41,135 nt of DNA from Candidatus Uhrbacteria bacterium RIFOXYA2_FULL_40_9 (GCA_001791615.1 MGEY01000054.1:1-41135); one strand, 5' to 3'. Positions 2,571 through 41,135 are shown, counted from the stretch's first letter. Made by a program: numbers and translations. Notes: generated by a model not told the origin, from the sequence alone.

Positions 2571-2641
2571 GTATTGACAAAAGCAAGCATTTGTTCTAAG
2601 TTTTTCTCTTTTTCTTTTAAAAAGATGAAAGGTACTTGTTA

Positions 2642-2650: not shown

Positions 2651-2681
2651 AAGCTTATCTAAATTTGTCTAATCATTATTT

Positions 2682-2993
2682 ATGAAATGTAAAAATCTTC
2701 CTTGCCTTGGCTTGCTTCAAGCCTTTAGTGTCAGTTTTTACATCGGCCTCATCAGTGTCTTTTTTACCTATGTTGCTCCAAATCTGCCATCACACCCATT
2801 TGTGATTGGTATGATTATGCTCACGCTTTTAGTTTTTTCCGCAGCCGTGACAGGATCTTTGGTGTTTGGTTATCCTGTGTATCTTATTTTGAACAAACAA
2901 ACAAAAGAAGGAGTTAGTATCTTTGCTTACACGTTGTTGTTTCTTGTTGTTATTCTCGCCATTTTAATTAGTCTTTTTTCTTTGTTTAGTTAA
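2682..2993 (+). CDS. Small integral membrane protein (about 3 TM), unknown function
   Basis: 103 aa and almost entirely hydrophobic helices. No motif recognised. Confidence 0.55.
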   Translation: MKCKNLPCLGLLQAFSVSFYIGLISVFFTYVAPNLPSHPFVIGMIMLTLLVFSAAVTGSLVFGYPVYLILNKQTKEGVSIFAYTLLFLVVILAILISLFSLFS

Positions 2994-3005
2994 TTACTAT
3001 TCCAT

Positions 3006-3791
3006 ATGACGCTTTTGTCGATTCTTCTTGCAACGTTTATCGTGAGTTTTATTTCTTTTGTTGGAGCTTTTGCTCTCATTTTTTCCAAGAACATGTTGGA
3101 TAAAATTCTTTCCATCCTCGTTGCTTTAGCAGGGGGAGGACTCATGGGAGGGGCGTTTCTTCATCTTATTCCGGAATCTCTTTTTGAAATCGGGAGTGAT
3201 GAATTGTCTATTTTGTGGATTTTTATTCTTGTTATTTTCGGATTTTGTTTCTTTTTAGTGATTGAACAGTTTCTTCATTGGCATCACCATCATCATGTTC
3301 ATGCTTCTTCTTGCCATGATTGTGAAGAAAACAAAAAAGCTCCGATGTCTTATCTCATTCTTGTTGGAGATGGAGTACACAATTTGATTGATGGACTCGT
3401 GATAGCTGCTTCTTTTTTGGTGAGTCCGATGGCAGGAATTATCACAACAATTGCTGTTGCTTTGCACGAGATTCCACAAGAAATTGGAGATTTCGGTGTT
3501 CTTGTGTACAGTGGTTTTAAACGATGGAAAGCTCTTCTTGCGAATTTTCTTTCAGGACTTACTGCAGTTATTGGTGGTGTTATTGGGTTTCTTTTTGCTG
3601 CACAAGTTGAAGGATCTATTGTGTATTTGTTACCAATTGCTGCCGGTGGTTTTATTTATATTGCGGCTTCAGATCTTGTTCCAGAGATTAAACATGAAAA
3701 GCATGCAGGAAGGCTTGCGTTGAATTTTTTTGTTTTTCTTTTGGGAATTAGTTTGATGTTGCTTATGAAGTTTCTCCCCTTTGCAGAATAA
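3006..3791 (+). CDS. ZIP family divalent metal (zinc) transporter
   Basis: Multi-TM protein with a His-rich loop (HWHHHHHVHASSCHDC) and the ZIP signature helix HNLIDGL...ALHEIPQEIGDF. Confidence 0.85.
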   Translation: MTLLSILLATFIVSFISFVGAFALIFSKNMLDKILSILVALAGGGLMGGAFLHLIPESLFEIGSDELSILWIFILVIFGFCFFLVIEQFLHWHHHHHVHASSCHDCEENKKAPMSYLILVGDGVHNLIDGLVIAASFLVSPMAGIITTIAVALHEIPQEIGDFGVLVYSGFKRWKALLANFLSGLTAVIGGVIGFLFAAQVEGSIVYLLPIAAGGFIYIAASDLVPEIKHEKHAGRLALNFFVFLLGISLMLLMKFLPFAE

Positions 3792-3796
3792 TTTAT

Positions 3797-5212
3797 ATGA
3801 AACCACTTAAATTTTTTAATACACTCACGCGGAAAAAGGAACCATTTCAATCAATTCATGAAGGGAAGGTTGGAATGTATTGTTGTGGACCAACCGTGTA
3901 TTGGTATGCCCACATTGGAAATATGCGTGCATTTATTTTTGATGATTTGTTGAAACGAACATTGAAATATCAAGAATATAAGGTGAGATCTGTGGTGAAT
4001 ATTACAGATGTTGGGCATTTAACAAGTGATGAAGATGAAGGGGAAGATAAAATGGTGGTGGCGATGCGTCGGGAAGGAAAGAGTGCTTACGACATTGCAC
4101 GATTTTATGAAGAAGCCTTTTTGAAGAATCTCGTTCAGTTAAACATAGAGCCCTTTGATGTTTATCCTCGCGCAACCGAGCATATTCCTGAACAAATTGC
4201 TTTGATCAAAAAAATCGAAGCTAACGGGTTTACCTATAAAACCTCTGATGGTCTTTACTTTGACACATCAAAACTTTCTGCATACGGAAAACTTTCTGGT
4301 CAAAGAGCAGAAGAAAAACAAGCAGGGATCCGAGTGGAAGTTGGAGAAAAGAAACATCCAACAGATTTCGCACTTTGGAAATTTTCTCCAAAAGAGGTGC
4401 AACGTGAAATGGAATGGGAATCACCTTGGGGAATAGGATTTCCAGGATGGCACATAGAATGTTCTGCCATGAGCGCAAAGTATTTAGGAGTTCCTTTTGA
4501 CATTCATACAGGGGGAGAAGATCACATTGCGGTCCATCATGAAAATGAAATCGCACAAACACAAGCAGCAGATGGAGTACTTCAGGCAAATTACTGGATG
4601 CATAATAGTTATTTGCAAGTTGATGGAGGAAAGATGAGCAAATCTCTTGGAAATCTTTTTACGGTTGAGGAATTAGAAGCAAAAGGTTTTGATCCGCTTT
4701 CCCTACGCTATTTCTTTTTAGGAGCACACTATCGATCAAAACAGAATTTTACTTTAGAAGCACTTGAGGCTTCACAAAAAGCCTTACATCGATTAATTGA
4801 TCTTGTGCGAGGGTGGGATCAGCCCGCTTTAGAAGGGATTCCATATTATGAGGAATTGTTTGAGCAAGCTGTGAGTGATGATTTGAACATTCCACAAGCT
4901 TTAGCTGTTGTGTGGGAAATGGTAGATTCTGATTTTTCTTCTTCTGCAAAAGCCGTCAGTTTGTTGAAGTTTGATGAAGTACTTGGATTGAAACTTGTTG
5001 ATTACATTGCAAAACCTCTCGAGATTACCAAAGAGGTTCAAGAATTACTTAATCAACGTCAAAAAGCACGAGAAGAAAAAGATTGGGAAGCCTCTGATCG
5101 GGTTCGTGATCAAATTGCCGAACTTGGGTATTTGGTAGAAGATAGTGCTGACGGACAGCGGATAAGGGGTCAAGGCTTCAGTCTTCACTTTTTCAAAAAA
5201 CAAGACAAATAA
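3797..5212 (+). CDS. cysS: Cysteine--tRNA ligase
   Basis: CGPTVYWYAHIGN (HIGH-class motif), WHIECS and KMSKSLGN. Confidence 0.95.
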   Translation: MKPLKFFNTLTRKKEPFQSIHEGKVGMYCCGPTVYWYAHIGNMRAFIFDDLLKRTLKYQEYKVRSVVNITDVGHLTSDEDEGEDKMVVAMRREGKSAYDIARFYEEAFLKNLVQLNIEPFDVYPRATEHIPEQIALIKKIEANGFTYKTSDGLYFDTSKLSAYGKLSGQRAEEKQAGIRVEVGEKKHPTDFALWKFSPKEVQREMEWESPWGIGFPGWHIECSAMSAKYLGVPFDIHTGGEDHIAVHHENEIAQTQAADGVLQANYWMHNSYLQVDGGKMSKSLGNLFTVEELEAKGFDPLSLRYFFLGAHYRSKQNFTLEALEASQKALHRLIDLVRGWDQPALEGIPYYEELFEQAVSDDLNIPQALAVVWEMVDSDFSSSAKAVSLLKFDEVLGLKLVDYIAKPLEITKEVQELLNQRQKAREEKDWEASDRVRDQIAELGYLVEDSADGQRIRGQGFSLHFFKKQDK

Positions 5213-5225
5213 CAACAAAAATTAA

Positions 5226-5251
5226 ACATCCGTATTATCGGGTGTTTTTTT
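5226..5251 (+). terminator. Rho-independent terminator after cysS
   Basis: ACATCCG tattat CGGGTGT (7 bp including one G-T pair) followed by T6. Confidence 0.7.
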
Positions 5252-5265
5252 GGGTATCACAACGA

Positions 5266-5294
5266 TTGACGAAACTGTGAAAGATTGCTATTCT
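5266..5294 (+). promoter_or_regulatory. Sigma70-type promoter TTGACG-17-TATTCT
   Basis: TTGACG at 5266-5271, a 17-nt spacer, TATTCT at 5289-5294. This would give a leader of about 185 nt before the ATG at 5488. Confidence 0.5.
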
Positions 5295-5487
5295 TTCTTG
5301 CCATTTGGATGAAGAAAAGAGTTGTTAACAAACAGTTCTTTCCTTCATCCAAACAGTCACGGGGCATGGGCACAAGATTCGGCCATGAAGGGTCGACTTG
5401 TGGCATCCGCTTTACCCATGCGATCGGGCTGTTTGCACACACCGCACCCAGGCGCTCTTGTGAGAGACTTGGGTCAAAGGAGGTTGC

Positions 5488-6576
5488 ATGAAGGACTACA
5501 TGACAGGCGTCAAACGTCTTCCACATTTCATTCGTTGGTTGATTGCATTAATGGTAGTATTTATCAGTCTGTTTTTCTTGCGTGGTGTTGCTGTTTCATT
5601 TTACTATGGGGAAAATTTTCAGGCTTGTTTTCAAGGAATTTCTGTTCTTTTTATTTATGGATTACTGATTTGGTTCTGGTATGCAAATGGGATTCTCAAG
5701 CACCTGTGGTATGAATCTAAACAAGACTTTGAATCAATTCGTGAACAGATAAAAGTTGATCGTAGTGAAGTTACAGTGAAGAATACACAAGTGAGAGCAC
5801 TTGAAGACCTTCTGCAGAGGCTGTGTGGGTTGCCAACTTTAGGTGCGGGGTCTTTTAATGCTCGATTCGATCACTACAGCCAGGAGGTCGGCAGGTACAT
5901 TGCTGTATATGTCGAATCACTGCCTTTTTATGATGTTCAGCCTGATGCGCGTATTCGAGACGCTCAGGCAAACGTCTGGGCATTCGAACGTTGTCTCAAT
6001 TTGCTTTTTGTACAGCACCAGATGATCCGTGAGATCGGGACGACTCTCGATCTTTCCTTTGTAGATGCTTGCAATGTAACAGATGAGCAGATTGAAGAAA
6101 GTAGACAAGCTGTTTTGGTAGCTCTCCAACAGATGAAGGCACAGGCAGATCAAGTCCACAAGCTCGAGACTAAAAAGGAAGAACTCTCCATTGCACTGCT
6201 GGGACTCACTGTTAGCGTTGCTTGTGTACTTTATAAACTTCGTCCTGAAAAACGTGTGGAAGAGATGACTGAAGAAGAAATGCGAAAGACTCTTCTGGAA
6301 GCCATTCGTGGTTATCGGCAAGGAAGAGAGGAAATGGTTGAAAGTTTCATTCTCGGTCTTGAGACAATGAAGATTGATTTTGAAAAGATTCGTTTGAACG
6401 CAGAATGGAGTCCTGAGGATCTCGAGATTGTGAGAGCAAGTCTTAAGGATACTGTGCAGAAGTGGCTTCGGGAGCGTAAACTTTTGGGTCGCAAGGATGG
6501 CACAGATCATCCTCAGGCTAGGGCATTGATCGAATTTTGCCTGGTTCAGCCTCTTGTTGAAAGCAAAAAGCAGTAA
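5488..6576 (+). CDS. Membrane-anchored helical/coiled-coil protein, unknown function (GC-rich islet A)
   Basis: AAGGAGG (5477-5483) lies 4 nt before the ATG. Two N-terminal TM helices are followed by a long helical, charged C-terminal region. G+C is visibly higher than in the flanks. Confidence 0.7.
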   Translation: MKDYMTGVKRLPHFIRWLIALMVVFISLFFLRGVAVSFYYGENFQACFQGISVLFIYGLLIWFWYANGILKHLWYESKQDFESIREQIKVDRSEVTVKNTQVRALEDLLQRLCGLPTLGAGSFNARFDHYSQEVGRYIAVYVESLPFYDVQPDARIRDAQANVWAFERCLNLLFVQHQMIREIGTTLDLSFVDACNVTDEQIEESRQAVLVALQQMKAQADQVHKLETKKEELSIALLGLTVSVACVLYKLRPEKRVEEMTEEEMRKTLLEAIRGYRQGREEMVESFILGLETMKIDFEKIRLNAEWSPEDLEIVRASLKDTVQKWLRERKLLGRKDGTDHPQARALIEFCLVQPLVESKKQ

Positions 6577-9810: not shown

Positions 9811-10464
9811 ATGAATTTGTTTGAAGATACACAAGAAGAATGCAAAGAGGTTTATTTAGATGAAACAGAATCGTTTACTCCTGAACCTCTCATGGACATC
9901 ATGACTGAAAAAGAAGATGCAGATATGCGTCAGGTTTTAGCATTACAGATGTTAAAACACGTTCAAGAAAATTTAGGACATGCTATTGAACTGTTAGAAA
10001 ACGGACAACTTGTAGATGCTCAAACAATGCTTGCACAGCTCGTGACAGAAAAGACCCAACTTCAAAGGAAAAAAGAAGCCCTTTCTGGGGACAAGGTATT
10101 GGAAGGAGTTTTTGATGGACGTGGTATGGTTGGTTCTGATGGGAGTATTTATGAAGTGCCACAGAATTATGCATCAAAATCTCGTTTAGTTGAGGGGGAT
10201 GTGTTGAAGCTCATTGTTCGTGCAAATGGGGAGCATATTTATAAGCAAATCAAGCCTATTGAACGTCGACGTGTTATTGGATCTTTACTTTTTGATGAAG
10301 TGGATAATCGTCATGTTGTCGTGGTGGGAGACATCACGTATCATGTGCTCGATGCCAGTGTAAGTTATCATCGCGGAGGACCCGGAGATGAAGTTGTCTT
10401 AGTGATTCCAAAATCTGGTAAATGTCGGTTTGGCGCCGTGGATGCGATCAATAAGAAACGATAA
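9811..10464 (+). CDS. Hypothetical protein (acidic N-terminus, beta-rich C-terminal half)
   Basis: 217 aa, starts 11 nt after the ATPase gene on the same strand. No motif I can name. Confidence 0.6.
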   Translation: MNLFEDTQEECKEVYLDETESFTPEPLMDIMTEKEDADMRQVLALQMLKHVQENLGHAIELLENGQLVDAQTMLAQLVTEKTQLQRKKEALSGDKVLEGVFDGRGMVGSDGSIYEVPQNYASKSRLVEGDVLKLIVRANGEHIYKQIKPIERRRVIGSLLFDEVDNRHVVVVGDITYHVLDASVSYHRGGPGDEVVLVIPKSGKCRFGAVDAINKKR

Positions 10465-10548: not shown

Positions 10549-12141
10549 ATGAATCAAGCCCTCTATCGAACGTATCGACCACAAACTTTTGCTTCTATTT
10601 CTGGGCAAGAGCATGTGGTGACAACTCTGAAAAATCAAATACTTTCAGGGAAGGTTGCGCATGCGTATTTGTTTACCGGACCAAGAGGAGTAGGGAAGAC
10701 AACGATTGCGCGACTGATTGCAAAAGTTGTGAATTGTGAACATCCAGAAGGAGGTGAGCCATGTAATCAGTGTGATGTTTGTACAGAAGTTGCAAAAGGT
10801 TCGGCTTTAGACATTTTTGAGATAGATGCAGCTTCTCATACTGATGTTGAAAATGTCCGTGAAAATATTATCAAAAGCGTTCGTTTTGCTCCGAATCGAT
10901 TCAAGTTCAAGGTGTACATTATTGATGAAGTTCACATGCTTTCCACTTCTGCTTTTAATGCGCTTTTGAAAACACTTGAGGAACCTCCTTCGCATGCCAT
11001 TTTTATTTTGGCTACCACAGAAATTCACAAAGTTCCACAAACGATTATTAGTCGTTGTCAGAGATTTGATTTTAGACGCATTCCAATCAAGGCCATGATA
11101 GATCGACTTGCAGGAATTGTAGAAAAAGAAGGGATTGAAGTTAATGAGGAGGTTTTGAGTGAAATTGCTCGCCACTCAGATGGATGTGCTAGAGATGCAG
11201 AGAGTTTGCTTGGACAAGTGCTTGCCATTGGAGAGAAAAAGATCACCATGAAAGAAGCTTCTTTAGTGCTTCCTGCAACAACGCATATTTTGGTTTTAGA
11301 TTTTCTTGAAGCCTTGCTTAAAAGAGATACTAGGCAAGGTGTTCATTTAATCAATACCTATCTTGAACAAGGGATTGATTTACGTCATTTTATTGAAGAT
11401 ACTATTGATCTTTCCCGCATTCTTCTTCTTGGAATGATTGGAGAAATGAAGCAGGCATCAGAAGCTTTTGATGAAACAACGCAAGCGCGACTTCAATTTT
11501 TTTCTTCTTTTACAACGATCTCTTTTATTTCTTTAATGATTGAATCTTTTTTGGAAGCAAAAAAGTTGATGAAAATTAGTCATATTCCTCAACTCCCGAT
11601 TGAACTTTCAATTTTAACGTGTTGTCAAAATAAAGAGGTCGTGCAGACATCAAAAGTAAATGCTCTTCCAATGAGAGGAGATTCTGTTTCATCTGAAAGA
11701 ACAGAAGTACTTAAACAAGTTCAAAACAAAAAAATACCTTCAGAAGAGATTCCTTTAGAGCAAGAGGTTGTTAAAGAAGAGGAGATTAAAGAAGAAACAA
11801 GAGAACAAAAAGAACCTGCACAAATTCCTGTATTTTCTCTTGAAGAAGTGCGACGTCGTTGGCCAGAAGTGTTTAAACAAGTGAAAGAATGCCATGCTTC
11901 TTTGCCTTTTGTCATGGAGTCTGCTTCGGTGTCCTCTATAAATGGAAATGAGCTTGAGCTTGATTTTAAGTATTCTTTGTATGCGGATACGATCAATCAG
12001 GAAAAGAATCGGAGTTTGATTGAGAAGATTGTGGAAAAGGTATACGGAGTCCATATGCGTATTCGAGCACGTTATGTTTTGGCTGAGGCTGATGAAGTTG
12101 CTGCTGATTTGATTGAAGAGTTTGGAGGAATTATGGTGTAA
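10549..12141 (+). CDS. dnaX: DNA polymerase III subunit gamma/tau
   Basis: MNQALYRTYRPQTF, GPRGVGKTT, a Zn module (CEHPEGGEPCNQCDVC), IIDEVHMLS and SRCQRF. Confidence 0.95.
   Translation: MNQALYRTYRPQTFASISGQEHVVTTLKNQILSGKVAHAYLFTGPRGVGKTTIARLIAKVVNCEHPEGGEPCNQCDVCTEVAKGSALDIFEIDAASHTDVENVRENIIKSVRFAPNRFKFKVYIIDEVHMLSTSAFNALLKTLEEPPSHAIFILATTEIHKVPQTIISRCQRFDFRRIPIKAMIDRLAGIVEKEGIEVNEEVLSEIARHSDGCARDAESLLGQVLAIGEKKITMKEASLVLPATTHILVLDFLEALLKRDTRQGVHLINTYLEQGIDLRHFIEDTIDLSRILLLGMIGEMKQASEAFDETTQARLQFFSSFTTISFISLMIESFLEAKKLMKISHIPQLPIELSILTCCQNKEVVQTSKVNALPMRGDSVSSERTEVLKQVQNKKIPSEEIPLEQEVVKEEEIKEETREQKEPAQIPVFSLEEVRRRWPEVFKQVKECHASLPFVMESASVSSINGNELELDFKYSLYADTINQEKNRSLIEKIVEKVYGVHMRIRARYVLAEADEVAADLIEEFGGIMV
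11559..11593 (+). other. Candidate -1 programmed frameshift site in dnaX (A_AAA_AAG plus stem-loop)
   Basis: The heptamer is in X_XXY_YYZ register (codons GCA AAA AAG at 11557-11565). The -1 frame reads GTT GAT GAA AAT TAG (stop at 11577-11579). An imperfect 12-position stem (10 pairs) spans 11565-11593. Confidence 0.35.
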
Positions 12142-12168
12142 AAGAAGGGTGATGGAATCATTATTCCA

Positions 12169-12197
12169 TTGACGCTTCACACTATTTTTGTTATCTT
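12169..12197 (+). promoter_or_regulatory. Sigma70-type promoter TTGACG-17-TATCTT (TGt extended -10) for the tRNA-Gln transcription unit
   Basis: TTGACG at 12169-12174, a 17-nt spacer, TATCTT at 12192-12197. Confidence 0.5.
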
Positions 12198-12215
12198 TTC
12201 GTGGTTCATATTTTA

Positions 12216-12264
12216 GTTCGCTCGGAAATGCCATGAAGCAAGCTTCAGTCATTTCGCTCACTCA
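12216..12264 (+). repeat. 49-nt direct repeat, copy 1
   Basis: gttcgctcggaaatgccatgaagcaagcttcagtcatttcgctcactca is identical to 12309-12357. It contains an internal hairpin: GAAATG..TGAAG caag CTTCA..CATTTC. Confidence 0.9.
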
Positions 12265-12308
12265 GTAAACAAAAGCTCCCGGATATCGTCTTCGACGATA
12301 TTCCGGTC

Positions 12309-12357
12309 GTTCGCTCGGAAATGCCATGAAGCAAGCTTCAGTCATTTCGCTCACTCA
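12309..12357 (+). repeat. 49-nt direct repeat, copy 2 (ends 1 nt before tRNA-Gln)
   Basis: Perfect copy of 12216-12264. Confidence 0.9.
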
Positions 12358-12358
12358 C

Positions 12359-12432
12359 TCCCGGATCGTCTAACGGCAGGACACCAGTTTCTGGCACTGG
12401 TAATCGGGGTTCGAGTCCCTGTCCGGGAACCA
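12359..12432 (+). tRNA. tRNA-Gln (anticodon CUG), CCA encoded
   Basis: Hand-folded cloverleaf. Acceptor TCCCGGA/TCCGGGA, D stem GTCT/GGAC, anticodon stem CCAGT/ACTGG with loop TTCTGGC, T arm CGGGG-TTCGAGT-CCCTG, discriminator A plus CCA. The U1-A72 pair is typical of bacterial tRNA-Gln. Confidence 0.85.
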
Positions 12433-13889: not shown

Positions 13890-14783
13890 TTATTTCGTTG
13901 CAACTTTGATTGCGTAATCTACAATCGCACCAGCAATACTGACATTTGTGGTTTTTTGTAATTCTTCAAAGCCTGGATTAGCATTTACTTCCACGACAAC
14001 AGGTCCTTCTTTTGTATACATGAGATCAATCCCACCAATTTCTAACTGATATTCTTTTGCTGCTTTTAGAGCGAGGTCTCGCTCTCTATCGGAAAGTTGA
14101 TAAGTAGCTCCGGATCCACCATTTGAAGTATTTGTTCGAATGTCTCCAGGAGGAGCCGTGCGCTCCATGGAGGCAATCACTTTGCCATCAACCACGAATA
14201 CACGAATATCTTTTCTATCCGCATCTGCAAGAAATTCTTCGACAATAATAGGCATGGCATTACGAGAAGTAAGATAATCTGCCACAGGTCGAAGGACTTC
14301 TTTACTATCTGCATAGAACACTCCGCGACCAAAAGATCCAAAGGAAACTTTGAGAACAACCGGAAATCCAATTTTGTCAGCAGCTAACATGATTTCACTG
14401 GTCCGCTTGGCAATAGCCCAACGTGCCATAGGCAATCCATTGGTGAGTGAAGTCACATGTTGTTCTAGCTTATTTTTTGCGTACCAGTAACTAGGCCAAG
14501 AATTGATGATGCGATATCCTGCCTGTTCAAGGAGTTGGGCTGGGTAGGCATGAGAACTGGGATCTTCCAAAAAGTTGGGTCGAGCAATAATGACATCGAT
14601 TTTTTCAAGAGGTTCACCATTATGGGTGATCACTAGTTTGCCGTCTGTTCGAATAAAAGCAAGTTGAGGGGTGTAGAGACGAACAGGGACATGTCCTTTT
14701 GCTTCAATCGTCGCAGCGATTTCTTCCACAAACGCATATTTTGCAAATTGTGGATCGGAAAAGGCAAGGATTCCAATCTTCAT
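13890..14783 (-). CDS. RimK-family ATP-grasp ligase
   Basis: 297 aa with ATP-grasp features (FPVVLKVSFGSFGRGV, IVEEF, GGIDLMYT..GPVVVEVNANPGF). Confidence 0.8.
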   Translation of the reverse strand: MKIGILAFSDPQFAKYAFVEEIAATIEAKGHVPVRLYTPQLAFIRTDGKLVITHNGEPLEKIDVIIARPNFLEDPSSHAYPAQLLEQAGYRIINSWPSYWYAKNKLEQHVTSLTNGLPMARWAIAKRTSEIMLAADKIGFPVVLKVSFGSFGRGVFYADSKEVLRPVADYLTSRNAMPIIVEEFLADADRKDIRVFVVDGKVIASMERTAPPGDIRTNTSNGGSGATYQLSDRERDLALKAAKEYQLEIGGIDLMYTKEGPVVVEVNANPGFEELQKTTNVSIAGAIVDYAIKVATK

Positions 14784-26621: not shown

Positions 26622-28073
26622 ATGGATATTACACACGCAACCCTTAAAGAACTTTCCACACAGCTTCAATCCGGCGCACTGACAAGCGAACAAATTGTTA
26701 CTGTTTTTTTGAAACAGATTGAAACACACAATACAGAACTCAAGGCTTTACTTGGTGTGGCTGAAGATGCCTTAGACCAAGCAAAGACTATTGATGCGCG
26801 AAGAAAAGCAGGAGAATCCTTACACCCTCTTGCAGGAATTCCAATTGTGCTGAAAGACAATATTCTCGTGAAAGGATGGAAAGCCACGGCAGGATCAAAA
26901 ATGCTTGAAAACTATCACGCCTCTTATGATGCCACGGTTGTCACACGATTGCGTCAGGCTGGCATGATCTTGCTTGGTCGCGCCAATATGGATGAATTTG
27001 CTATGGGATCTTCCACAGAAAATTCTTTTTTCGGGCCAACAAAAAATCCTTGGGATACACGCAAAGTTTCTGGAGGATCAAGTGGAGGATCGATTGTTTC
27101 TGTGGCCGCAGGCTTTGCTCCTGTGGCACTTGGATCAGATACAGGTGGTTCTGTACGTCAACCCGCTTCACTTTGTGGCATTGTTGGACTCAAGCCAACC
27201 TATGGTCGTGTTTCGCGGTTTGGTTTGATGGCTCTTGGATCAAGTCTTGATCAAATTAGTGTTGCTACCAAAACTGTGGAAGATGCTGCCATGCTTCTAC
27301 AGGTGATTGAGGGAGAAGATAAAAAAGATGCAACAACAAGTGTTTTAGAAGAAACAACCATTCCTGCTTTGCTTGAGCCTTCTGTGAAAGGGTTGCGATT
27401 AGGCGTTCCAAAAGAATATTTTGTGGAAGGAATGGATTCAGAAGTGAAGTCTTGTGTAGAGGAAGCTATTGAGCAGTTGAAAATTGCAGGTGCAGAGATT
27501 GTAGAAGTGTCTTTACCTCATACCCCTTATGCAATCGCCACGTACTATCTTATTCAGATGTCTGAGGCAAGTTCGAATTTAGGAAGATATGATGGGGTAC
27601 GTTATGGGTACTCTTCTCAGGCTGGCACACTTAAACAAAGTTATGAGCAGACACGCGAAACTGGATTTGGAGCAGAAGTGAAACGTCGCATTCTTCTTGG
27701 AACATTTGCGCTTTCTGCAGGATATTACGATGCCTATTATAAAAAAGCTTCACAAGTAAGAACCCTTATCAAACAGGATTTTGATCAAGCTTTTACTCAA
27801 GTTGATGCACTTTTGACTCCAACCTCTCCTTCTGTGGCGTGGAATCTTGGAGAAAAATTTGAAGATCCTTTAGCAATGTATCTTTCCGATATTTATACAG
27901 TTTCAGTGAACCTTGCAACAGTTCCAGCTCTTTCACTTCCTTGTGGATTTGCACACGACCTTCCCGTTGGTTTGCAAGTAATTGCACGCCCATTTGATGA
28001 GCAAATGTTGTATCGTGTGGGAATGACTTATCAAACCATGACAGATTGGCATACCAAAACGTCCTTTGTATGA
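26622..28073 (+). CDS. gatA: Glu/Asp-tRNA amidotransferase subunit A
   Basis: Amidase signature GGSSGGS...GSDTGGSVRQPA. Typical length. Confidence 0.95.
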   Translation: MDITHATLKELSTQLQSGALTSEQIVTVFLKQIETHNTELKALLGVAEDALDQAKTIDARRKAGESLHPLAGIPIVLKDNILVKGWKATAGSKMLENYHASYDATVVTRLRQAGMILLGRANMDEFAMGSSTENSFFGPTKNPWDTRKVSGGSSGGSIVSVAAGFAPVALGSDTGGSVRQPASLCGIVGLKPTYGRVSRFGLMALGSSLDQISVATKTVEDAAMLLQVIEGEDKKDATTSVLEETTIPALLEPSVKGLRLGVPKEYFVEGMDSEVKSCVEEAIEQLKIAGAEIVEVSLPHTPYAIATYYLIQMSEASSNLGRYDGVRYGYSSQAGTLKQSYEQTRETGFGAEVKRRILLGTFALSAGYYDAYYKKASQVRTLIKQDFDQAFTQVDALLTPTSPSVAWNLGEKFEDPLAMYLSDIYTVSVNLATVPALSLPCGFAHDLPVGLQVIARPFDEQMLYRVGMTYQTMTDWHTKTSFV

Positions 28074-28828
28074 TTCCGTATATAGCGACAACTGGATGGG
28101 CTTTGGGTCCTTTGTGGATTCAAAGTTGGGGATTCATGGTTGCTTTGGGAATTCTTACTGCCACTTTTGCAGCTTCTCGACTTGCAAAAACTCGCGGACT
28201 TCAATCAGACAGCATTTGGAATCTCACAACTTGGGTGATTTTGGGAGCTTTTGTTTTTGGACGACTGTTCCATATCCTTTTTTATGATCTTTCTTTTTTT
28301 ATGCAAAATCCTTGGGAGGTTTTTGCTATTTGGCACGGAGGGCTTTCAATTACAGGGGGATTTTTAGGGGCTGCACTTGTCGGAATTATTTATTTGAAAC
28401 GAAAAAGATTAGATGTTTGGTCTTTTACTGACACAGCAATATTTGGATTACCTTTAGGGTTATGGATTGGAAGGATTGGATGTTTTTTGATTCATGACCA
28501 CCCAGGAAAGCCTACAAATTTTTTCTTGGGCGTACGCTATCCAGATGGGATTGTCCGGCACGATCATGGACTTTATCTTTCTTTGAATGGTTTGCTGATG
28601 TTTCTTGTTTTCTTGATGCTTGCGAAGCGAAAAGTGCAAACAGGAACTTATATGATTGTTTTTTTAATATGGTACGGTATGGTTCGCTTTGTTCTTGATT
28701 TTTATCGAGCCACAGAAGGAGCGATTGTGGACGAACGGTATGGACATCTCACTCCTGCGCAATATGGAAGTGTTATCATGATCGCCTTGGGGATATTCCT
28801 GGCTGTTCGTATGAAAAAATACGCCTGA
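28070..28828 (+). CDS. lgt: Prolipoprotein diacylglyceryl transferase
   Basis: ATGA overlap with the gatA stop. WHGGLSITGG and GRIGCF motifs in a polytopic membrane protein. Confidence 0.88.
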   Translation: MIPYIATTGWALGPLWIQSWGFMVALGILTATFAASRLAKTRGLQSDSIWNLTTWVILGAFVFGRLFHILFYDLSFFMQNPWEVFAIWHGGLSITGGFLGAALVGIIYLKRKRLDVWSFTDTAIFGLPLGLWIGRIGCFLIHDHPGKPTNFFLGVRYPDGIVRHDHGLYLSLNGLLMFLVFLMLAKRKVQTGTYMIVFLIWYGMVRFVLDFYRATEGAIVDERYGHLTPAQYGSVIMIALGIFLAVRMKKYA

Positions 28829-30064: not shown

Positions 30065-30091
30065 TGTGTGTCTTTGCAAAAGGAGGAAACC

Positions 30092-30787
30092 ATGCGAAGA
30101 CTCACAGGTGTTCTTTTCATCATCGCTATCATCTCTACTTTTCTGTCTACCAGTCTAGCTCTTGCTGACGGGGATTCTTCATCCACGGTCGGTCAAGCTG
30201 TGAGCCAGGAGGATGCGCAGGCCATGCGCGAGCAGATGGCGATTATGGCCAAGAGTCTCGGACTCAAGGTCACAGACCCTGACGGCAATGAGGTAACTGC
30301 TTCGGCTACAGATATGGCTCAGGTCGCAGATAAAGCCCTCGACATGGCCAACCAGCGAATTGATCAGCTCATCGACGGCACATCGACCTTGGTCGGTCAG
30401 CTCTCGGTGGTCATGAAGAATGTGGCTCCTGAGATTTGGCGCATCATGATCACCCAGCAGTACGTGAAGGCTGTGGCTGATCTAGCTCTGCCTTTGGCAT
30501 TACTGGGAGTTTCTGCGCTTTTCTGCTATCTCGTGACACAGAAGTTTATTAAGAAGGAAGATCATGAGGATAATAATGCAGAGACGGCGAGGCTTCTTAT
30601 CGGTTGGTGGATTCCCGTGTTTGTTGGATTGGTTTTTGCCATGTGGTCTGCTATCGCATTCAGTAATTCGGTAAAGTATGTGATCAATCCAGAATACTAT
30701 GCAGTTCGAGATATCATGGTGTTGATCAGCAATCCTGAAAGTTTGATTGAAGGTGATGGTGGTACTGCTCAGCAGTCACGCAAGTAG
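30092..30787 (+). CDS. Secreted protein with two C-terminal TM helices, unknown function (GC-rich islet B)
   Basis: AAGGAGG lies 5 nt upstream. Signal peptide MRRLTGVLFIIAIISTFLSTSLALA|DG. Two later hydrophobic helices. High G+C. Confidence 0.7.
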   Translation: MRRLTGVLFIIAIISTFLSTSLALADGDSSSTVGQAVSQEDAQAMREQMAIMAKSLGLKVTDPDGNEVTASATDMAQVADKALDMANQRIDQLIDGTSTLVGQLSVVMKNVAPEIWRIMITQQYVKAVADLALPLALLGVSALFCYLVTQKFIKKEDHEDNNAETARLLIGWWIPVFVGLVFAMWSAIAFSNSVKYVINPEYYAVRDIMVLISNPESLIEGDGGTAQQSRK

Positions 30788-33631: not shown

Positions 33632-33719
33632 TGGCGGAGAGGACAGGATTCGAACCTGCGTAAGATTTCTCTTAACACGCTTTCCAAGCGTGCGCCATCA
33701 ACCACTCGGCCACCTCTCC
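33632..33719 (-). tRNA. tRNA-Ser (anticodon GGA), CCA encoded
   Basis: The reverse complement folds as a class II tRNA. Acceptor GGAGAGG/CCTCTCC, anticodon stem CACGC/GCGTG with loop TTGGAAA, a long variable arm (TAAGA gaaa TCTTA), T arm GCAGG-TTCGAAT-CCTGT, discriminator G plus CCA. Confidence 0.9.
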
Positions 33720-36711: not shown

Positions 36712-37935
36712 ATGCCGAAAAAAAAGACAACACCAAAGAAACCAGTGGCAAAGAAGAAGGTTAATGCAAAAGGGAAACAAGCCACAAAAAAAACTGTTCC
36801 AAAAAAGAAAGACTTGCAAGAAGAACCAAAGGAACGGTATACACGTGCAAAAGCTCCTGATGAGGAGCAATTAGATCGTTTATTGCAAAAAGGAATGAAT
36901 CGAGGATTCATCACAGAAAATGAAGTTCTTTTTACCTTTGTTGAAGTCGAAGATTATCTTCAACTCTTTGAAGATTTTCTTGATCTCATGGAAGCAAAGG
37001 GGATTCATTTTGTAGAAATGAAGGAAGGTATTCTTGGAAGAGAAAAAGATCGTGAAGGAGTGTATGAGAAGATTCGTGTTACACATGAAAAGAAAAATGA
37101 TATTCCAGAGATCACACAAGATTCCATTCAAATGTATTTGCGTGAGATCGGAAAAATCCCTCTTTTGAATGGAGAACAAGAAGTTGCGCTTGCAAAACGC
37201 AAAGAGCGTGGTGATCGAGAAGCTGTTCGAAGGCTCATTGAAGCCAACCTTCGTTTAGTGGTTTCCATCGCAAAGAAATTTGTTGGAAAGCAAATGTCTT
37301 TACTTGATTTGATTCAAGAAGGAAATGTGGGTTTGTTCCGGGCAGTAAAAAAGTTTGAATATCGAAAAGGATATAAGTTCTCTACCTATGCCACGTGGTG
37401 GATTCGTCAAGCCATCACACGAGCACTCGCAGATCAGTCACGTACCATTCGCATTCCTGTGCACATGGTCGAGACGATCAATAAGTTCAAGCAAATTGAG
37501 CGTCAACTCATTCAAGATCTTGGTCGTGAACCACTCCCAGAAGAGATTGCCGCTGAAATGGGTCAATCCGTAGAAAAAGCGCGGCACATTAAAAAGATTT
37601 CTCAAGATACGGTTTCTTTAGAAACTTCTGTGGGTGATGATGATGAAGATTCAAAGCTTGAGGATTTCATCGAGGATATCAAGACTATTTCTCCAGATCG
37701 CAATGCTGCACGTGAGCTTTTGAAAGATTATGTTCATGAAGCCATGGAAGATTTGACTCCTCGTGAGCAAAAGATTTTAGAAATGCGTTTTGGTCTTACG
37801 GATGGCGTGAGTCACACACTTGAAGAAGTAGGAAGAGACTTTGATGTCACGCGTGAGCGTATTCGTCAAATTGAAGCAAAAGCTCTTGAAAAAATCCAGA
37901 TGAACCCACTGATTGAAAAATTACGAGATTATTAA
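36712..37935 (+). CDS. rpoD: RNA polymerase primary sigma factor (sigma70 family)
   Basis: Region 2 ([52 protein letters not shown]), region 3 and region 4 ([20 protein letters not shown]). I chose the start at MPKKK (36712), downstream of the dnaG stop. Confidence 0.93.
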
Positions 37936-37940
37936 ATGAG

Positions 37941-37970
37941 AACACCCCTGAAAAAGGGGTGTTTTTGTTT
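37941..37970 (+). terminator. Rho-independent terminator after rpoD
   Basis: AACACCCCT gaaaa AGGGGTGTT (9 bp) followed by a T run. Confidence 0.85.
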
Positions 37971-38034
37971 TACGCGGTACGTAACCGGGTTAGGCGGTAC
38001 GTAACCGGGTTAGGCGGTACGTAACCGGGTTACG
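37971..38034 (+). repeat. 3.2 x 20-nt tandem direct repeat (iteron-like)
   Basis: ta[c/g]gcggtacgtaaccgggt at 37971, 37991 and 38011, then a partial 'tacg' at 38031. The only difference between units is at position 3. Confidence 0.9.
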
Positions 38035-38072
38035 TACTGTAGGATAGAACTTTTACAGTACAGAACGGATCC

Positions 38073-38101
38073 TTGACGAAAGTGGCTATTTCGGCTAAGA
38101 T
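38073..38101 (+). promoter_or_regulatory. Sigma70-type promoter TTGACG-17-TAAGAT
   Basis: TTGACG at 38073-38078, a 17-nt spacer, TAAGAT at 38096-38101. AGGAGG at 38140-38145 lies 4 nt before the ATG at 38150. Confidence 0.55.
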
Positions 38102-38149
38102 TTTTTGCTTGTTCTTTTTATCATTCACAAACTTCCAACAGGAGGCAAT

Positions 38150-39082
38150 ATGAGCAGCCATCAAGTTGAACTCTTTCCTACGGGTAAAGTTGTAGACAGA
38201 GGTCCTCACTATAGTGGTCATTTCGTTCCTGACCTTGTTGGTCGGGCAGCAGATTTGTACCAAAAAGGAGAAAAGGGTGGTAGCCATCTAAAAGAGATTG
38301 AGAATGCAGAAAGAGAAGTCCATCATCGAAGGTTTGATTGGTGGCAGGATATTGTGTGGTCTTTGCTAGGATTGTGTCATTGGATGTTATATGGTTTTAT
38401 GACTATTTGTTGGGTGTTTCTATGCGTGTTGACTCTAGTTGAAGGTAAGTTTACTTTTGCTGAATGGTTTACTCCCTTTCTTTTGGTACAAGCGATTCAC
38501 TGGTTGCTAACATTTATTATTTATCCGCTTGTTATCCTTTGGTGTCAGAGAAAGCTGAAAAAGGCAGAAGAGAGGGTGAAGACTCTGAAAGAAATGGGGC
38601 TTGTAAGAACGAAGGAAGAATGCAAGATTCTAGAAAATCCTTGGTACCAATTCGCGTCCCATGCGGCAAAGCTTCGTGATCTTTTCAATGAGAAAGCCAA
38701 GGCATGGAACATTATGGCCGAGGCTATTGATAAGGGAGTCATTGAACTCACGGATGAGTTGCAGCGCTATTACGACCATCTTGTCACAGTTCGCCAGCAA
38801 GTGGAACGTACGGTCAATACAGCGGATTTTTTGGTGAAGTACTATGAGGAAAGTGAGCGAAGCGGTCAGAGAATGAGTCATCATGAAATTAAGGAACTGC
38901 TCGCTCAGGTGGATGAAGCTCGTGCAAGAATGGATGCCTTTTTTGAGATTGAAGAGATGCCGTTTGACCCCGCAACAGTCACTGCCAGAGCGAAGACGAT
39001 TTTGCCAGAGGATGTTCCTGAAGTTGATCGAAAGCTGCTTATTGAGCGAGCTCTGGCCAGTCAGCATAGAGCCACTCGCTAG
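38150..39082 (+). CDS. Membrane protein with a cytoplasmic/extracellular coiled-coil tail, unknown function (GC-rich islet C)
   Basis: I chose the start at MSSHQVELFP (a strong SD precedes it). A hydrophobic block of 3-4 helices at about residues 75-145 is followed by a helical charged region. High G+C. Confidence 0.7.
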   Translation: MSSHQVELFPTGKVVDRGPHYSGHFVPDLVGRAADLYQKGEKGGSHLKEIENAEREVHHRRFDWWQDIVWSLLGLCHWMLYGFMTICWVFLCVLTLVEGKFTFAEWFTPFLLVQAIHWLLTFIIYPLVILWCQRKLKKAEERVKTLKEMGLVRTKEECKILENPWYQFASHAAKLRDLFNEKAKAWNIMAEAIDKGVIELTDELQRYYDHLVTVRQQVERTVNTADFLVKYYEESERSGQRMSHHEIKELLAQVDEARARMDAFFEIEEMPFDPATVTARAKTILPEDVPEVDRKLLIERALASQHRATR

Positions 39083-39106
39083 AAGACCCCCAAAAGGGTC
39101 TTTTTT
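39083..39106 (+). terminator. Rho-independent terminator
   Basis: AAGACCC ccaaaa GGGTCTT followed by a T run. Confidence 0.8.
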
Positions 39107-39150
39107 CTTACGAACATTTCTCTTTCCCGTTGACAAGGATGAGTTTTTGA

Positions 39151-39179
39151 TTGACAATTTGGCCATTTTTTGTTATCCT
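39151..39179 (+). promoter_or_regulatory. Sigma70-type promoter TTGACA-17-TATCCT (TGt extended)
   Basis: TTGACA at 39151-39156 and TATCCT at 39174-39179. A second TTGACA lies at 39130-39135. Confidence 0.5.
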
Positions 39180-39258
39180 TCAACGTTCTTTCAGTGCTTT
39201 GCACTGGTGATTTTTCCTGTTCTTTTCATCTCACCCAACACCCTCCCAAGGAGCACCT

Positions 39259-41135
39259 ATGCGTATTCACGCACTCGCCCTGTTTTCTCTTTCCTGCTTG
39301 ATGATTGCCTGCGGAGAAGAACCTGTTGCCGAGCCTGCCTCTATTGTTCCGGTCACTGACCCTAAGCCAAACCCCGTCGAATACCCGGTTGATAATTCTT
39401 TTTCGACAGATGAGGCTACAGCGGCTTGGCTGGATTCTGTAGAAGCGACAGCAACACAGATTTCCAACCTTTCGGTCGATTACGGAAACCTGAACACTTT
39501 TGTTCAGTCGTTGACTTTTGATGAGGCTTCTCTGCGAGAGTTTTCCAGAACTATGCCAAACTATCCTTATCTTCCTTCAGATGGTCTGTGTCAGATTGAG
39601 TACTACGGTGAGGCAGAAATTTTTCATATGACCGTGGATGAGGCTCATCGTCTTGCCAAGCAGACCGAAGATCCTAACTTGGACAAGGAATGGCAAGCGA
39701 GTCGGTATTTCATTTCTCACAACATGACTGTGGAAGCACACGAGTGTCTTGTTGCCCTTCGTCAAGAAGATGAATGGAAGGCAGTTGGACGTTTGGCTAT
39801 TGAGCTTGGCAATTTTGATCTTATTGACCAGACTCTTGATTCCTACCGTGAGCTGGATCGGGTCAGTGATATTCATCAGCTCATGAATTATGCGGTGCAG
39901 ATTGGTCATCTCAAGACGGCTCAGCATATTGCCGGTAAGATGGAATGGAACTATCTGGCGGAAATTCCGCTCGAGCAGCTTCAGCGTCGTGTTGCCTGTG
40001 GAGATGTTGATCTTCTTGCCGAGTTGATTCCCTATCAGTTGAAGGAAGAAAAGGAAGCGGCACAGCAGGGAACCGAATTCGGTTTTGAGCAAAAGCATTC
40101 TGAATATCTGCTTGGCAACATTGCTCTGTTTGGCCAAAAGGATCGGCAGCAAGCCCTGGCTTATGCGCGAGAAGCGCTGGCGTGGGATGGTCTCAATGTT
40201 GTTGTTCTGTACAGCAATCCAGATTATGGCGATTATGATGTGGTTCAAGGTTCGCTTGCCTTCTGGCAGTTGATCAAGAGCGATCCTGCATTGGCTGATT
40301 CCTATCTTCGACATGTGGATGCTTGGTTCCAGCAGGTCGTGACTCATGATGATGGTTGGAAGCCACTTCCTCCCGTCGTCTGCGCTCCCAATGAGATTTA
40401 TGAGATTTTTGAGCCATTTTATTTCAACAATCCTTTCCCAGATTTGTTGGTTTCTGTGGGTCAGGGGGATGTGATCCTGCGTGATCGCTATCTCTGGCAT
40501 TTGGATCATCTCAATGAGGATGTCAGATCTGATGGATTGGCTATCGCGGTCATGAGACATTTCCTCGGAAGACCATGGGATATTGAAAATCCCCGTTTGA
40601 CCCAGGCAGCTCGTTATCAGATTGCTTTCCTGTCTGGGCACAAGGAAAAGGCACCACCGCCAACTTCACGACCGTACTACCTGTCCCAGTCTTCCGAGTA
40701 CGTGATCTTTCAGGATGGATCCATTCTCGATTCGACTGATCTGGGAATACTCCTGAGGTCTGGCCATCTTTCCAAGGCTGCAGCCGTTCAGTTGTTTACA
40801 CTTCTGCAGATTCATGTTGATCCTTATACTGGAAGCTCCTACAGTAAGCCAGAAGATGTTCAGCTTGCCATGGGCTTGGTCTCTGAAAATGTGAGTCGAG
40901 GTGAATGGGATCGAGCTCTGCCAATTTGCCATGGTCTTCTTGTGGGGACGCGCACAGATAAGTGCGAGTCACTCTTGGATGAGCAAGGTTTCTTGAGTAC
41001 AAAGAGTCCTCAGGTCAACGGCTACATCCATGATCTGTTGACTGTGACTGGTAATACAGATCTGGCAAAGGAGCTACTCGTCCAGCAGCTTCTGAAGGAA
41101 CTTTCCGATCAAACTACTGCTCGATTTGAGTGGCA
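39259..41135 (+). CDS. Large putative lipoprotein, 3'-truncated by the window edge (at least 625 codons), unknown function
   Basis: Not in the supplied ORF track because no stop falls within the window. I translated all 625 codons by hand from the ATG at 39259 and found none. AAGGAG lies 5 nt upstream. The N-terminus MRIHALALFSLSCLMIAC|GEE fits the lipobox pattern (LMIA-C). Helical-repeat-like composition. Confidence 0.75.
   Translation, partial: MRIHALALFSLSCLMIACGEEPVAEPASIVPVTDPKPNPVEYPVDNSFSTDEATAAWLDSVEATATQISNLSVDYGNLNTFVQSLTFDEASLREFSRTMPNYPYLPSDGLCQIEYYGEAEIFHMTVDEAHRLAKQTEDPNLDKEWQASRYFISHNMTVEAHECLVALRQEDEWKAVGRLAIELGNFDLIDQTLDSYRELDRVSDIHQLMNYAVQIGHLKTAQHIAGKMEWNYLAEIPLEQLQRRVACGDVDLLAELIPYQLKEEKEAAQQGTEFGFEQKHSEYLLGNIALFGQKDRQQALAYAREALAWDGLNVVVLYSNPDYGDYDVVQGSLAFWQLIKSDPALADSYLRHVDAWFQQVVTHDDGWKPLPPVVCAPNEIYEIFEPFYFNNPFPDLLVSVGQGDVILRDRYLWHLDHLNEDVRSDGLAIAVMRHFLGRPWDIENPRLTQAARYQIAFLSGHKEKAPPPTSRPYYLSQSSEYVIFQDGSILDSTDLGILLRSGHLSKAAAVQLFTLLQIHVDPYTGSSYSKPEDVQLAMGLVSENVSRGEWDRALPICHGLLVGTRTDKCESLLDEQGFLSTKSPQVNGYIHDLLTVTGNTDLAKELLVQQLLKELSDQTTARFEW

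Follow-up and report, generated by a model that had tools for sequence, protein, structure and literature searches.

A GC-rich two-gene islet between rpoD and a MacB-type exporter operon in Candidatus Uhrbacteria, a candidate accessory envelope cassette of the lineage

Introduction

CPR bacteria (Candidate Phyla Radiation, or Patescibacteria) are ultra-small, largely uncultivated and apparently dependent on contact with a host, and their variable surface proteins are almost uncharacterised. Here we analyse a stretch of 41,135 nt from Candidatus Uhrbacteria bacterium RIFOXYA2_FULL_40_9 (MGEY01000054.1:1-41135, hereafter the window), a genome probably of groundwater origin, and, within it, islet C, a GC-rich block that begins at the rpoD terminator, runs through the right end of the window and encodes a 310-residue membrane protein (p310) followed by a lipoprotein. 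An initial annotation of the window had marked three such blocks (A, B and C), and had taken islet C for horizontally acquired envelope cargo, possibly from a host bacterium or a mobile element. We find that islet C is an insert of two genes placed between rpoD and a conserved exporter operon, and we consider, with moderate confidence, that it is a lineage-endemic, fast-evolving accessory envelope cassette which has been relocated or exchanged within Uhrbacteria, and not cargo of host, phage or plasmid origin.

Results

Structure of the islet C locus

The window was lengthened by 8 kb using longer public contigs. Positions above 41135 come from these contigs, and the public contigs or loci that we compared carry L-numbers (L001 is the extension contig, whose coordinates are offset by 28149 from those of the window at the dyad site; P0006 is a lipoprotein homologue on a contig of its own). 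In contig coordinates islet C spans ~37,966 to ~41,480, about 3.5 kb, so that its right end lies ~350 nt past the window. Its content is exactly two genes and a repeat array, laid out as follows.

37936..37972, plus strand: intrinsic terminator of rpoD, left edge of the islet (14-bp stem and U-run, -19.1 kcal/mol, z -6.0)
37970..38037, no strand: array resembling repetitive extragenic palindromic (REP) elements, three direct 20-nt units TTAGGCGGTACGTAACCGGG and one inverted GTACGTAACC core (Tandem Repeats Finder, TRF, and repeat search)
38017-38037: perfect 21-nt palindrome GTACGTAACC-G-GGTTACGTAC, closing the array
38029..38066, no strand: second dyad, GTTACGTACTGTA / TACAGTACAGAAC, an inverted repeat between the array and the p310 promoter (L001 9880-9892 / 9905-9917)
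38073..38101, plus strand: p310 promoter (-35 TTGACG(AAA), 17-nt spacer, -10 TAAGAT)
38103..38122, plus strand: CU-rich leader motif, copy 1, TTTTGCTTGTTCTTTTTATC, 47 nt before the p310 ATG
38140..38145, plus strand: Shine-Dalgarno (SD) site AGGAGG, 4 nt before the p310 ATG
38150..39082, plus strand: p310 gene, 310 aa (translation, hydropathy, AlphaFold2 model)
39081..39110, plus strand: intrinsic terminator of the p310 gene (9-bp stem and U-run, -11.8 kcal/mol, z -3.2)
39130-39158, plus strand: overlapping alternative promoter of the lipoprotein gene
39151..39179, plus strand: promoter of the lipoprotein gene (-35 TTGACA, 17-nt spacer, TG-extended -10 TATCCT)
39191..39230, plus strand: lipoprotein leader hairpin (39191-39207) followed by a U/C-rich tract (terminator-like match and motif)
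39211-39230, plus strand: CU-rich motif, copy 2, 48 nt before the lipoprotein ATG
39248..39253, plus strand: SD site AAGGAG, 5 nt before the lipoprotein ATG
39259..41135, plus strand: lipoprotein gene, first 625 of 725 codons; the coding sequence ends at contig position 41436 (L001:11110-13287; lipobox, family, AlphaFold2 model)
~41448-41478, plus strand, past the window: terminator of the lipoprotein gene (-18 kcal/mol, z -4.4)

Beyond the last terminator lie genes for a 627-aa HlyD-type membrane-fusion protein (MFP), an ABC ATPase and a MacB_PCD/FtsX permease. Because these exporter genes show the G+C content at third codon positions (GC3) of the backbone (0.22-0.28) and a leaderless promoter of the backbone type, with a TATACT box 9 nt before the ATG, we limit the islet to its two genes. 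The initial annotation had suggested that it might open a larger system truncated at the end of the window, and had called its second product a giant lipoprotein. Extension of the contig instead completes that protein at 725 aa, ~300 nt past the window, and then brings in the backbone-type exporter operon, so that the islet does not begin a larger foreign system.

The arrangement is well supported by independent assemblies. The p310 sequence is identical on 23 public contigs, which include the metagenome-assembled genome (MAG) contigs MGFC01000037.1 and DNXX01000016.1 at NCBI and contigs from JGI, ENA and Logan assemblies. Eight contigs were fetched and aligned to the window over 3-13 kb, none of them with more than one mismatch, and both the rpoD-islet and the islet-exporter junctions are identical in these eight independently assembled contigs. 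The single mismatch, at position 41119, is a G in the window and a C in all seven public contigs that cover it, giving Ala instead of Pro in the lipoprotein. Further downstream, at contig position ~46161, inside a gene of 247-273 aa located 3' of ftsX, L001, L002 and L008 are identical to L006 up to that point and then diverge or end, which suggests a strain-variable or repeated region.

Base composition

The G+C content of 37971-41135 is 0.466 against 0.399 in the rest of the window (46.6% vs 39.9%), and windows of the same length elsewhere in the sequence reach at most 0.431. The rise in G+C first noticed by eye is thus real, and the hand count of 33/60 for the line 39301-39360 is exact. GC3 is 0.418 in the p310 gene (38150-39082) and 0.470 in the lipoprotein gene (39259-41436), for a backbone median of 0.283, and these values set both genes apart from the window backbone (robust z of 3.8 and 5.2, respectively).

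Other genes of the window share this trait. In islet B, the gene at 30068-30787 has the highest GC3 of the window (0.54), is SD-led, encodes three predicted transmembrane segments and matches phrog_1486 ("membrane protein", moron category; E = 4e-11). Two conserved cell-division genes, mraZ (681-1190, GC3 0.45) and rsmH/mraW (1297-2184, GC3 0.35), also exceed the backbone, so that the GC3 excess is not restricted to orphan genes. The two tRNA genes of the window, at 12359-12429 (plus strand) and 33635-33719 (minus strand), adjoin none of the GC-rich islets.

Promoters, leaders and ribosome-binding sites

Each islet gene is preceded by a complete -35/-10 promoter and a strong SD site, exactly where the initial annotation had placed them. 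Taken as a whole, a scan of the window for such promoters returned 26 sites for 20.4 +/- 4.1 expected, which is not above chance, and the weight of the two islet promoters therefore lies in their position and not in the match itself. The 9-mer TTGACGAAA, read as common to the promoters of islets A and C, occurs in the window only at 5266 and 38073. The terminators of rpoD, of the p310 gene and of the lipoprotein gene all fold much better than shuffled sequences, and the p310 gene indeed has a terminator of its own, as had been proposed.

The predicted leaders measure ~42 nt (p310) and ~73 nt (lipoprotein), so that only the second falls within the 50-80 nt first put forward. Both contain the same 20-nt CU-rich motif at nearly equal distance from the ATG (47 and 48 nt), and the leader of the lipoprotein gene in L083 has a similar hairpin followed by a GATTTTTCGTTCTTC tract, resembling the lipoprotein leader of the window. 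The leader hairpin and CU-rich tract may have a regulatory role through attenuation, or may enhance translation as a U-rich element; an Rfam scan of 37900-39300 returned no riboswitch or known leader. A promoter of the form TTGAC[AG](AAA)-17-TAnnnT precedes all homologues of the lipoprotein and of p310 that have readable upstream DNA, with a near-consensus -35 box (TTGTCA or TTGACT) in the L019 and L033 homologues; where the promoter is clear, the leader measures roughly 40-170 nt.

The backbone genes are organised differently. An SD-like core within 25 nt upstream was found for only 5 of the 39 other open reading frames (ORFs), with a full AGGAGG in two of them (gene 5488 of islet A, and ftsX, an operon-internal gene). 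Many backbone genes instead carry a TAnnnT box that ends 5-10 nt before the ATG and is often extended by an upstream TGn (extended -10), with neither a -35 box nor an SD site; such genes, with a -10-type box near the ATG, lie at 6681, 9811, 15828, 17251, 20944, 21402, 23501 and 28840 and at contig position 41553. The contrast between islet and backbone drawn by the initial annotation thus holds. Because the -10 box sits so close to the start codon, many operon-first backbone genes would be transcribed as leaderless mRNAs, which implies that such mRNAs are widespread in this Uhrbacteria genome.

The p310 protein

The p310 protein has two hydrophobic helices (residues ~68-97 and ~106-132) separated by a loop of 8 residues, and the segment following the second helix contains 7 Lys/Arg in 19 residues. 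Hydropathy and charge suggest a membrane hairpin whose N-terminal and helical C-terminal domains would both be cytoplasmic; with only two transmembrane helices, "polytopic" overstates it. Its AlphaFold2 model is helical (pLDDT 66). Just two homologues were found, 46-47% identical and located on short contigs, one of them from the same sample as L083. Searches of Pfam, NCBIfam, PADLOC, PHROG and PDB gave no match and Foldseek returned nothing, nor did the p310 profile match any protein of the genome contigs or of viral contigs. The protein is absent from the other lipoprotein contexts examined. A relationship with the products of two GC-rich neighbours of other lipoprotein genes, p424 of L060 and p564 of L019, was ruled out by comparison.

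The lipoprotein and its family

The second gene encodes a protein starting with MRIHALALFSLSCLMIAC, which contains the lipobox LMIAC. As the first match to the lipobox pattern is at Cys13, the lipid-site cysteine was assigned by conservation in the family, where Cys18 is found in at least 90% of 21-25 members. The window also contains a gene for Lgt (PF01790), at 28046-28828, of which the protein is a predicted substrate, and surface exposure is likewise predicted. The AlphaFold2 model is an all-alpha solenoid of good confidence (pLDDT 81, pTM 0.73).

We searched 1.84 billion representative proteins exhaustively with HMMER and obtained only 25 members of the family, all of 224-740 aa. Those inspected begin with a lipobox, and those with a taxonomic name belong only to Ca. 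Uhrbacteria or Parcubacteria. Pairwise identity within the family is 23-35%, and the closest homologue of the window protein, in L083, is 33-34% identical. No match was found in Pfam (including TPR, Sel1 and HEAT), NCBIfam, PADLOC, PHROG or viral contigs, and the PDB sequence-profile matches were noise. Foldseek gave only generic alpha-solenoid (TPR/PPR/HEAT-like) matches with a TM-score of at most 0.25. Alpha-solenoid lipoproteins of this general type, such as BamD and LpoA, act as envelope scaffolds. The window protein resembles them by its N-terminal lipobox followed by an all-alpha helical-repeat body, and differs from them by the lack of a Pfam repeat match, by the generic nature of its structural matches and by its CPR origin. 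Its anatomy and gene neighbourhood make it likely that the protein is a surface-tethered scaffold for protein contacts, with p310 as a membrane-anchored cytoplasmic partner and possibly in association with the neighbouring exporter.

We also considered the lipoprotein gene as the target of a diversity-generating retroelement. This was discarded: the gene and its surroundings lack a long direct repeat, and no reverse-transcriptase domain was seen among the neighbouring genes.

Gene order in related genomes

We compared 47 Uhrbacteria rpoD loci, the best rpoD matches among species-representative genomes being up to 91% identical. In L024, L026, L056 and the P0006 contig, rpoD is followed by MFP-ABC-FtsX within 100 nt, and we therefore regard islet C as an insertion. 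In L044 the rpoD-MFP junction is occupied by another gene, a DHO_dh-like (dihydroorotate-dehydrogenase-like) gene on the minus strand (11393-12373) which is GC3-rich (0.58) and SD-led. Several relatives thus have nothing at the rpoD-exporter junction, which has received genes more than once. Elsewhere in L044, three adjoining SD-led genes (2273-6064) have a GC3 of 0.75-0.87, for a genome median of 0.37.

Family lipoproteins (LIPO) are found around the same set of genes. L056 and the P0006 contig share the order Na/Ca exchanger-dnaG-rpoD-MFP-ABC-FtsX-LIPO-ECF (extracytoplasmic function) sigma-small protein, and L060 shows PBP-ABC-FtsX-p424-LIPO-ECF sigma. L083 has its lipoprotein gene directly after rpoD and oriented as in the window, L019 has it convergent to rpoD, and L033 has it 3 kb downstream of rpoD. 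The family hidden Markov model found no member in L024, L026 or L044. Synteny in relatives, which the initial annotation had named in advance as an argument against acquisition, is therefore observed in part: most relatives examined have the lipoprotein gene beside rpoD or the exporter operon. The sequences form two loose subgroups that partly follow this placement, one with the window, L019 and L083 proteins, whose genes adjoin rpoD, and one with those of L056, L060 and L061, of which the L056 and L060 genes come after FtsX. Between L056 and L060 the flanking proteins are mostly 62-80% identical (46% for the CYTH protein) and the lipoproteins only 31%. From these comparisons the family is lineage-endemic, fast-evolving, dispensable and resident in the rpoD-exporter-ECF sigma neighbourhood.

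GC3 and Shine-Dalgarno sites as, in part, a gene-class trait

In every genome checked, GC3 of the lipoprotein gene is above that of its locus, by about +0.05 to +0.36, and most family lipoprotein genes carry an SD site that their neighbours lack:

Window: lipoprotein 0.47, background 0.29
L019: lipoprotein 0.52, background 0.44
L056: lipoprotein 0.73, background about 0.37
L060: lipoprotein 0.80, background about 0.43
L061: lipoprotein 0.91, background 0.66
L033: lipoprotein 0.84, background 0.79

In L083, a relative of higher G+C, the lipoprotein gene has a GC3 of 0.69 against 0.65 in the tail of rpoD, of which only 23 codons are available. Because these two values are close, exchange from higher-GC Uhrbacteria stays plausible.

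The association of GC3 with SD sites extends well beyond this family. In a set of 37 Uhrbacteria loci, which total 611 kb and 527 ORFs, SD-positive genes deviate from the GC3 median of their locus by a median of +0.052 and the others by -0.005 (p = 1e-13); the median of SD-positive genes rises to +0.116 when only the first start candidate is used, and reverse-complement and scrambled control motifs have no effect on GC3. The offset is family-specific (analysis of variance, p = 2e-8). Among genes with a GC3 excess above 0.10, 70% are unique to one locus vs 41-44%, which fits high-GC3 genes forming an accessory pool; crude heuristics showed no enrichment of signal peptides, lipoboxes or transmembrane segments among GC3-rich genes. 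Conserved enzymes nevertheless belong to the same class. The CDP-alcohol phosphatidyltransferase family has a GC3 excess of +0.15 +/- 0.03 in six genomes and the PRPP-synthetase-like family one of +0.10 in four, and 67-75% of their genes have an SD site, in genomes of very different G+C. Members of these two families with an excess of +0.10 to +0.17, in genomes with a median GC3 of 0.33-0.66, are found at L020:8552-9364, L051:4219-4956, L021:11475-12239, L053:8730-9542 and L013:16195-17319. Since conserved enzyme families carry it stably, the combination of GC3 and SD is not in itself evidence of recent transfer: the signature is partly a heritable gene-class trait, and marks a class of genes as much as foreignness. 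A literature search for leaderless and SD-led gene classes in Patescibacteria found no such link.

A REP-like array and Y1 transposase genes

The tandem repeat seen at the start of the block is real. It comprises 3.2 copies of a 20-nt unit at 37970-38032 (TRF score 119; 0 matches in shuffles), lies between the rpoD terminator and the p310 promoter and is found nowhere else in the window. The last direct GTACGTAACC copy and the inverted copy together form the perfect 21-nt palindrome, for which we found no exact match in genome contigs or viral contigs. A repeat search of the window and its extension detected neither a right-hand copy nor a target-site duplication. The array, proposed as the boundary of an island, is thus present on the left side only.

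An exact-match scan of metagenome contigs found identical doublets of 41-47 nt at three further loci, L068 (two doublets, with the hairpin core six times), L071/L081 (one doublet) and L077. The G+C of these contigs (0.39-0.41) and their backbone GC3 are the same as in the window, which suggests that they belong to the same genome. L077 carries, at 4534-5241, a gene for a 235-aa Y1_Tnp (IS200-like) protein (PF01797, E = 5e-9) with the motif NHFHLF (HUH-type), bounded on both sides by arrays (~4500-4545 and ~5250-5300). As the doublets recur at these loci and flank a Y1_Tnp gene in L077, we regard the repeat as an endogenous dispersed element. In L071, as in the window, the array stands between a terminator and the TTGACAAAA-type promoter of a GC3-rich gene. 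In L019, a second Y1_Tnp gene, resembling those of REP-associated tyrosine transposases (RAYT), is located at 11099-12103, between rpoD and the convergent lipoprotein gene; its product is 31% identical to that of L077, and it is edged by 20-nt inverted repeats of its own, GGTCCGGACATCGGACTTTT, and by a duplicated terminator of ~35 nt. No Y1 transposase gene was found in the window or its extension.

These elements resemble the known REP/REPIN and RAYT systems by their 20-nt palindromic units clustered in intergenic DNA just after a terminator, by the identical doublets found elsewhere, by the arrays flanking the Y1_Tnp gene of L077 and by the related gene with its own inverted repeats at the rpoD/lipoprotein junction of L019. 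They differ in that the L077 flanks are direct and not inverted (each being itself a hairpin) and in that the window has no RAYT gene. A REP/RAYT system is probably present in this CPR genome; our literature search found no report of RAYT or REPIN in CPR, and we know of no description of such a system there. The position of the elements in the window, L071 and L019 is suggestive of a possible link between REP-like elements and the shuffling of GC-rich genes. A recombination breakpoint at the array, considered from the comparison of L071 with L081, was dropped since the two are the same locus.

Several other observations were made on these contigs. In L077 (2773-6301) the Y1 transposase gene lies between genes for an [FeFe]-hydrogenase large subunit and a NuoF-like protein, and apparently splits a hydrogenase operon. 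L068 has a second, weaker Y1_Tnp-like ORF (13912-14559, E = 2e-4), and a 128-nt segment, which in L071 forms the last 128 nt, is identical at the ends of L068 and L071, maybe another dispersed element. In L059 (90-215), 5' of a p310 homologue, a different palindromic repeat (CGTCTTTCCGGGC...GACCyGGrATC) occurs twice and is followed by a hairpin and a TTGACAAAA promoter, a layout like that of the window with a different repeat sequence.

Discussion

We propose that islet C is an accessory element that came to separate rpoD from a conserved MacB-type (MFP-ABC-FtsX) exporter operon by movement or swapping within Uhrbacteria, plausibly out of higher-GC relatives. Each of its genes would be a separate transcription unit, with a -35-dependent promoter for sigma-70 of the TTGAC[AG]AAA-17-TAnnnT type. 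The resulting mRNAs, with a leader of ~40-75 nt containing the CU-rich motif, would be translated by SD pairing, when the core mRNAs around them would mostly be leaderless. Their products would be a 725-aa alpha-solenoid lipoprotein tethered at the outer face of the membrane and a p310 hairpin with its domains facing the cytoplasm. Exchange within the lineage agrees with the observation that most gene transfers detected into Patescibacteria come from other Patescibacteria (PMC12455944).

Several results weigh against this proposal. The closest possible donors are only 34% (lipoprotein) and 47% (p310) identical, so that transfer, with its direction and timing, would have to be deduced indirectly. 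The lipoprotein subfamilies follow position, which long vertical residence explains as well as exchange does. The composition may be a property of the gene class, as in the CDP-alcohol phosphatidyltransferase and PRPP-synthetase-like families, which keep both the GC3 excess and the SD site. The junction shows no integrase, flanking direct repeat or tRNA. Lastly, fold searches aimed at function gave only the generic alpha-solenoid, at a TM-score no higher than 0.25.

Both genes might instead be purely vertical residents, long established in this neighbourhood, a possibility that we take seriously while finding it distinctly less probable than exchange. The GC3 and SD/-35 signals would then be a stable property of a gene class, for instance of genes that are conditionally expressed, -35-dependent and SD-translated. 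Selection would maintain them, or else GC-biased gene conversion at a surface-protein locus prone to recombination, with no transfer at all. Indeed, SD-positive genes are richer in GC3 across the 37 loci when controls are flat, the offset depends on the family and includes two conserved enzyme families, and homologues adjoin rpoD in L083 and L019, in keeping with the correlation of subfamily and position. The GC3 excess of +0.18 to +0.36 is however large for gene conversion alone, the family is missing from several relatives with the same backbone, and the high-GC3 genes are mostly unique to one locus. Moreover, p310 has just two homologues, and the rpoD-MFP adjacency of four relatives implies an insertion or relocation in the lineage of the window.

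A broader and rather speculative view is that two expression classes co-exist in Uhrbacteria: a core class with -35-independent (extended -10) promoters, leaderless mRNAs and AT-rich third positions, and a second class with the TTGACAAAA-type -35 box, long leaders, SD sites and GC-richer third positions. The second might be a conditional regulon that includes hypervariable surface lipoproteins acting at the interface of host or cell contact. Its composition would be actively maintained rather than a fading trace of transfer, and REP/RAYT elements would mark the junctions where shuffling occurs.

A functional proposal, compatible with exchange within the lineage and in our opinion rather unlikely, is that p310 and the lipoprotein are accessory subunits of the MFP-ABC-FtsX exporter, the whole forming a five-gene envelope system with the islet as its variable front end, which would answer to the larger system suggested by the initial annotation. 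The neighbouring operon has the composition of the MacAB/YknXYZ exporters (HlyD-type MFP, ABC ATPase and MacB_PCD/FtsX permease), and lipoprotein genes of the family often adjoin a transporter of the MacB_PCD/FtsX type, as in the window, L056, the P0006 contig and L060, all these genes being on the same strand. Yet both islet genes lie between a promoter and a strong terminator of their own, and a separate leaderless promoter serves the exporter, so that the islet genes are not co-transcribed with it. Co-occurrence concerns only about half of the contexts examined: L019, L033 and L061 have the lipoprotein with no adjoining exporter, L024, L026 and L044 have the exporter with no lipoprotein, and p310 is missing from every other lipoprotein context. 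Neither islet protein shows homology to a known exporter subunit.

Recent acquisition from outside the lineage, be it from a host bacterium of higher G+C, a plasmid or a phage, we find improbable. The claim of horizontal cargo made by the initial annotation stands as regards the atypical composition and expression signals, the insertion relative to relatives and the patchy distribution, and the repeat array at one edge also speaks for it. A donor outside the lineage was not found. Among 1.84 billion representative proteins no homologue was found beyond the 25-member family, whose named members are all from CPR (Uhrbacteria/Parcubacteria), and neither islet protein matched viral contigs, PHROG or PADLOC, which leaves no link to mobile elements or defence. 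In relatives the homologues keep synteny with rpoD or the exporter, the array belongs to an endogenous repeat that is dispersed, and the window has no integrase or transposase. As for an assembly chimera, with a GC-rich tail misjoined from another organism during binning or assembly, the window does stop within its GC-rich part, but independent contigs (ENA, two NCBI MAGs, JGI and Logan) span both junctions identically and differ from the window by a single nucleotide at most, and we reject it.

Islet C is partly comparable with two kinds of known elements. Like genomic islets and "atypical" genes (the atypical class of GeneMarkS-2, PMC6028130; exchange within the phylum in Patescibacteria, PMC12455944), it is a short, patchily distributed insert with atypical G+C and codon usage and signals of its own, following the terminator of a housekeeping gene. 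Unlike them, it has no integrase, tRNA or flanking direct repeats, its homologues are found within the recipient lineage and in the same neighbourhood, and its signature is shared by conserved enzyme genes.

Hypervariable surface cassettes, such as O-antigen, capsule and variable lipoprotein loci, occupy fixed slots and are swapped by recombination in their conserved flanks. The lipoprotein locus resembles these by its conserved flanks around a highly divergent gene (mostly 62-80% against 23-35% identity), its atypical composition and its presence or absence among relatives. It differs from them in that a single gene and not a biosynthetic cluster varies, in that its G+C is higher rather than lower, and in that the slot itself changes (after rpoD, after FtsX or convergent to rpoD).

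In conclusion, our study does not overturn current views, and brings a modest but useful refinement to them. The combination of GC richness and an SD site is in itself no proof of foreign origin in Uhrbacteria genomes, and the contrast between a leaderless core and SD-led accessory genes is one that gene finders and detectors of horizontal gene transfer should take into account. The lipoproteins described here form a small lineage-specific family whose fold is predicted with confidence and whose place in the genome recurs, next to rpoD, a MacB-type exporter or an ECF sigma gene, and variable surface proteins of this kind are obvious candidates for a part in the contact of CPR bacteria with their hosts.

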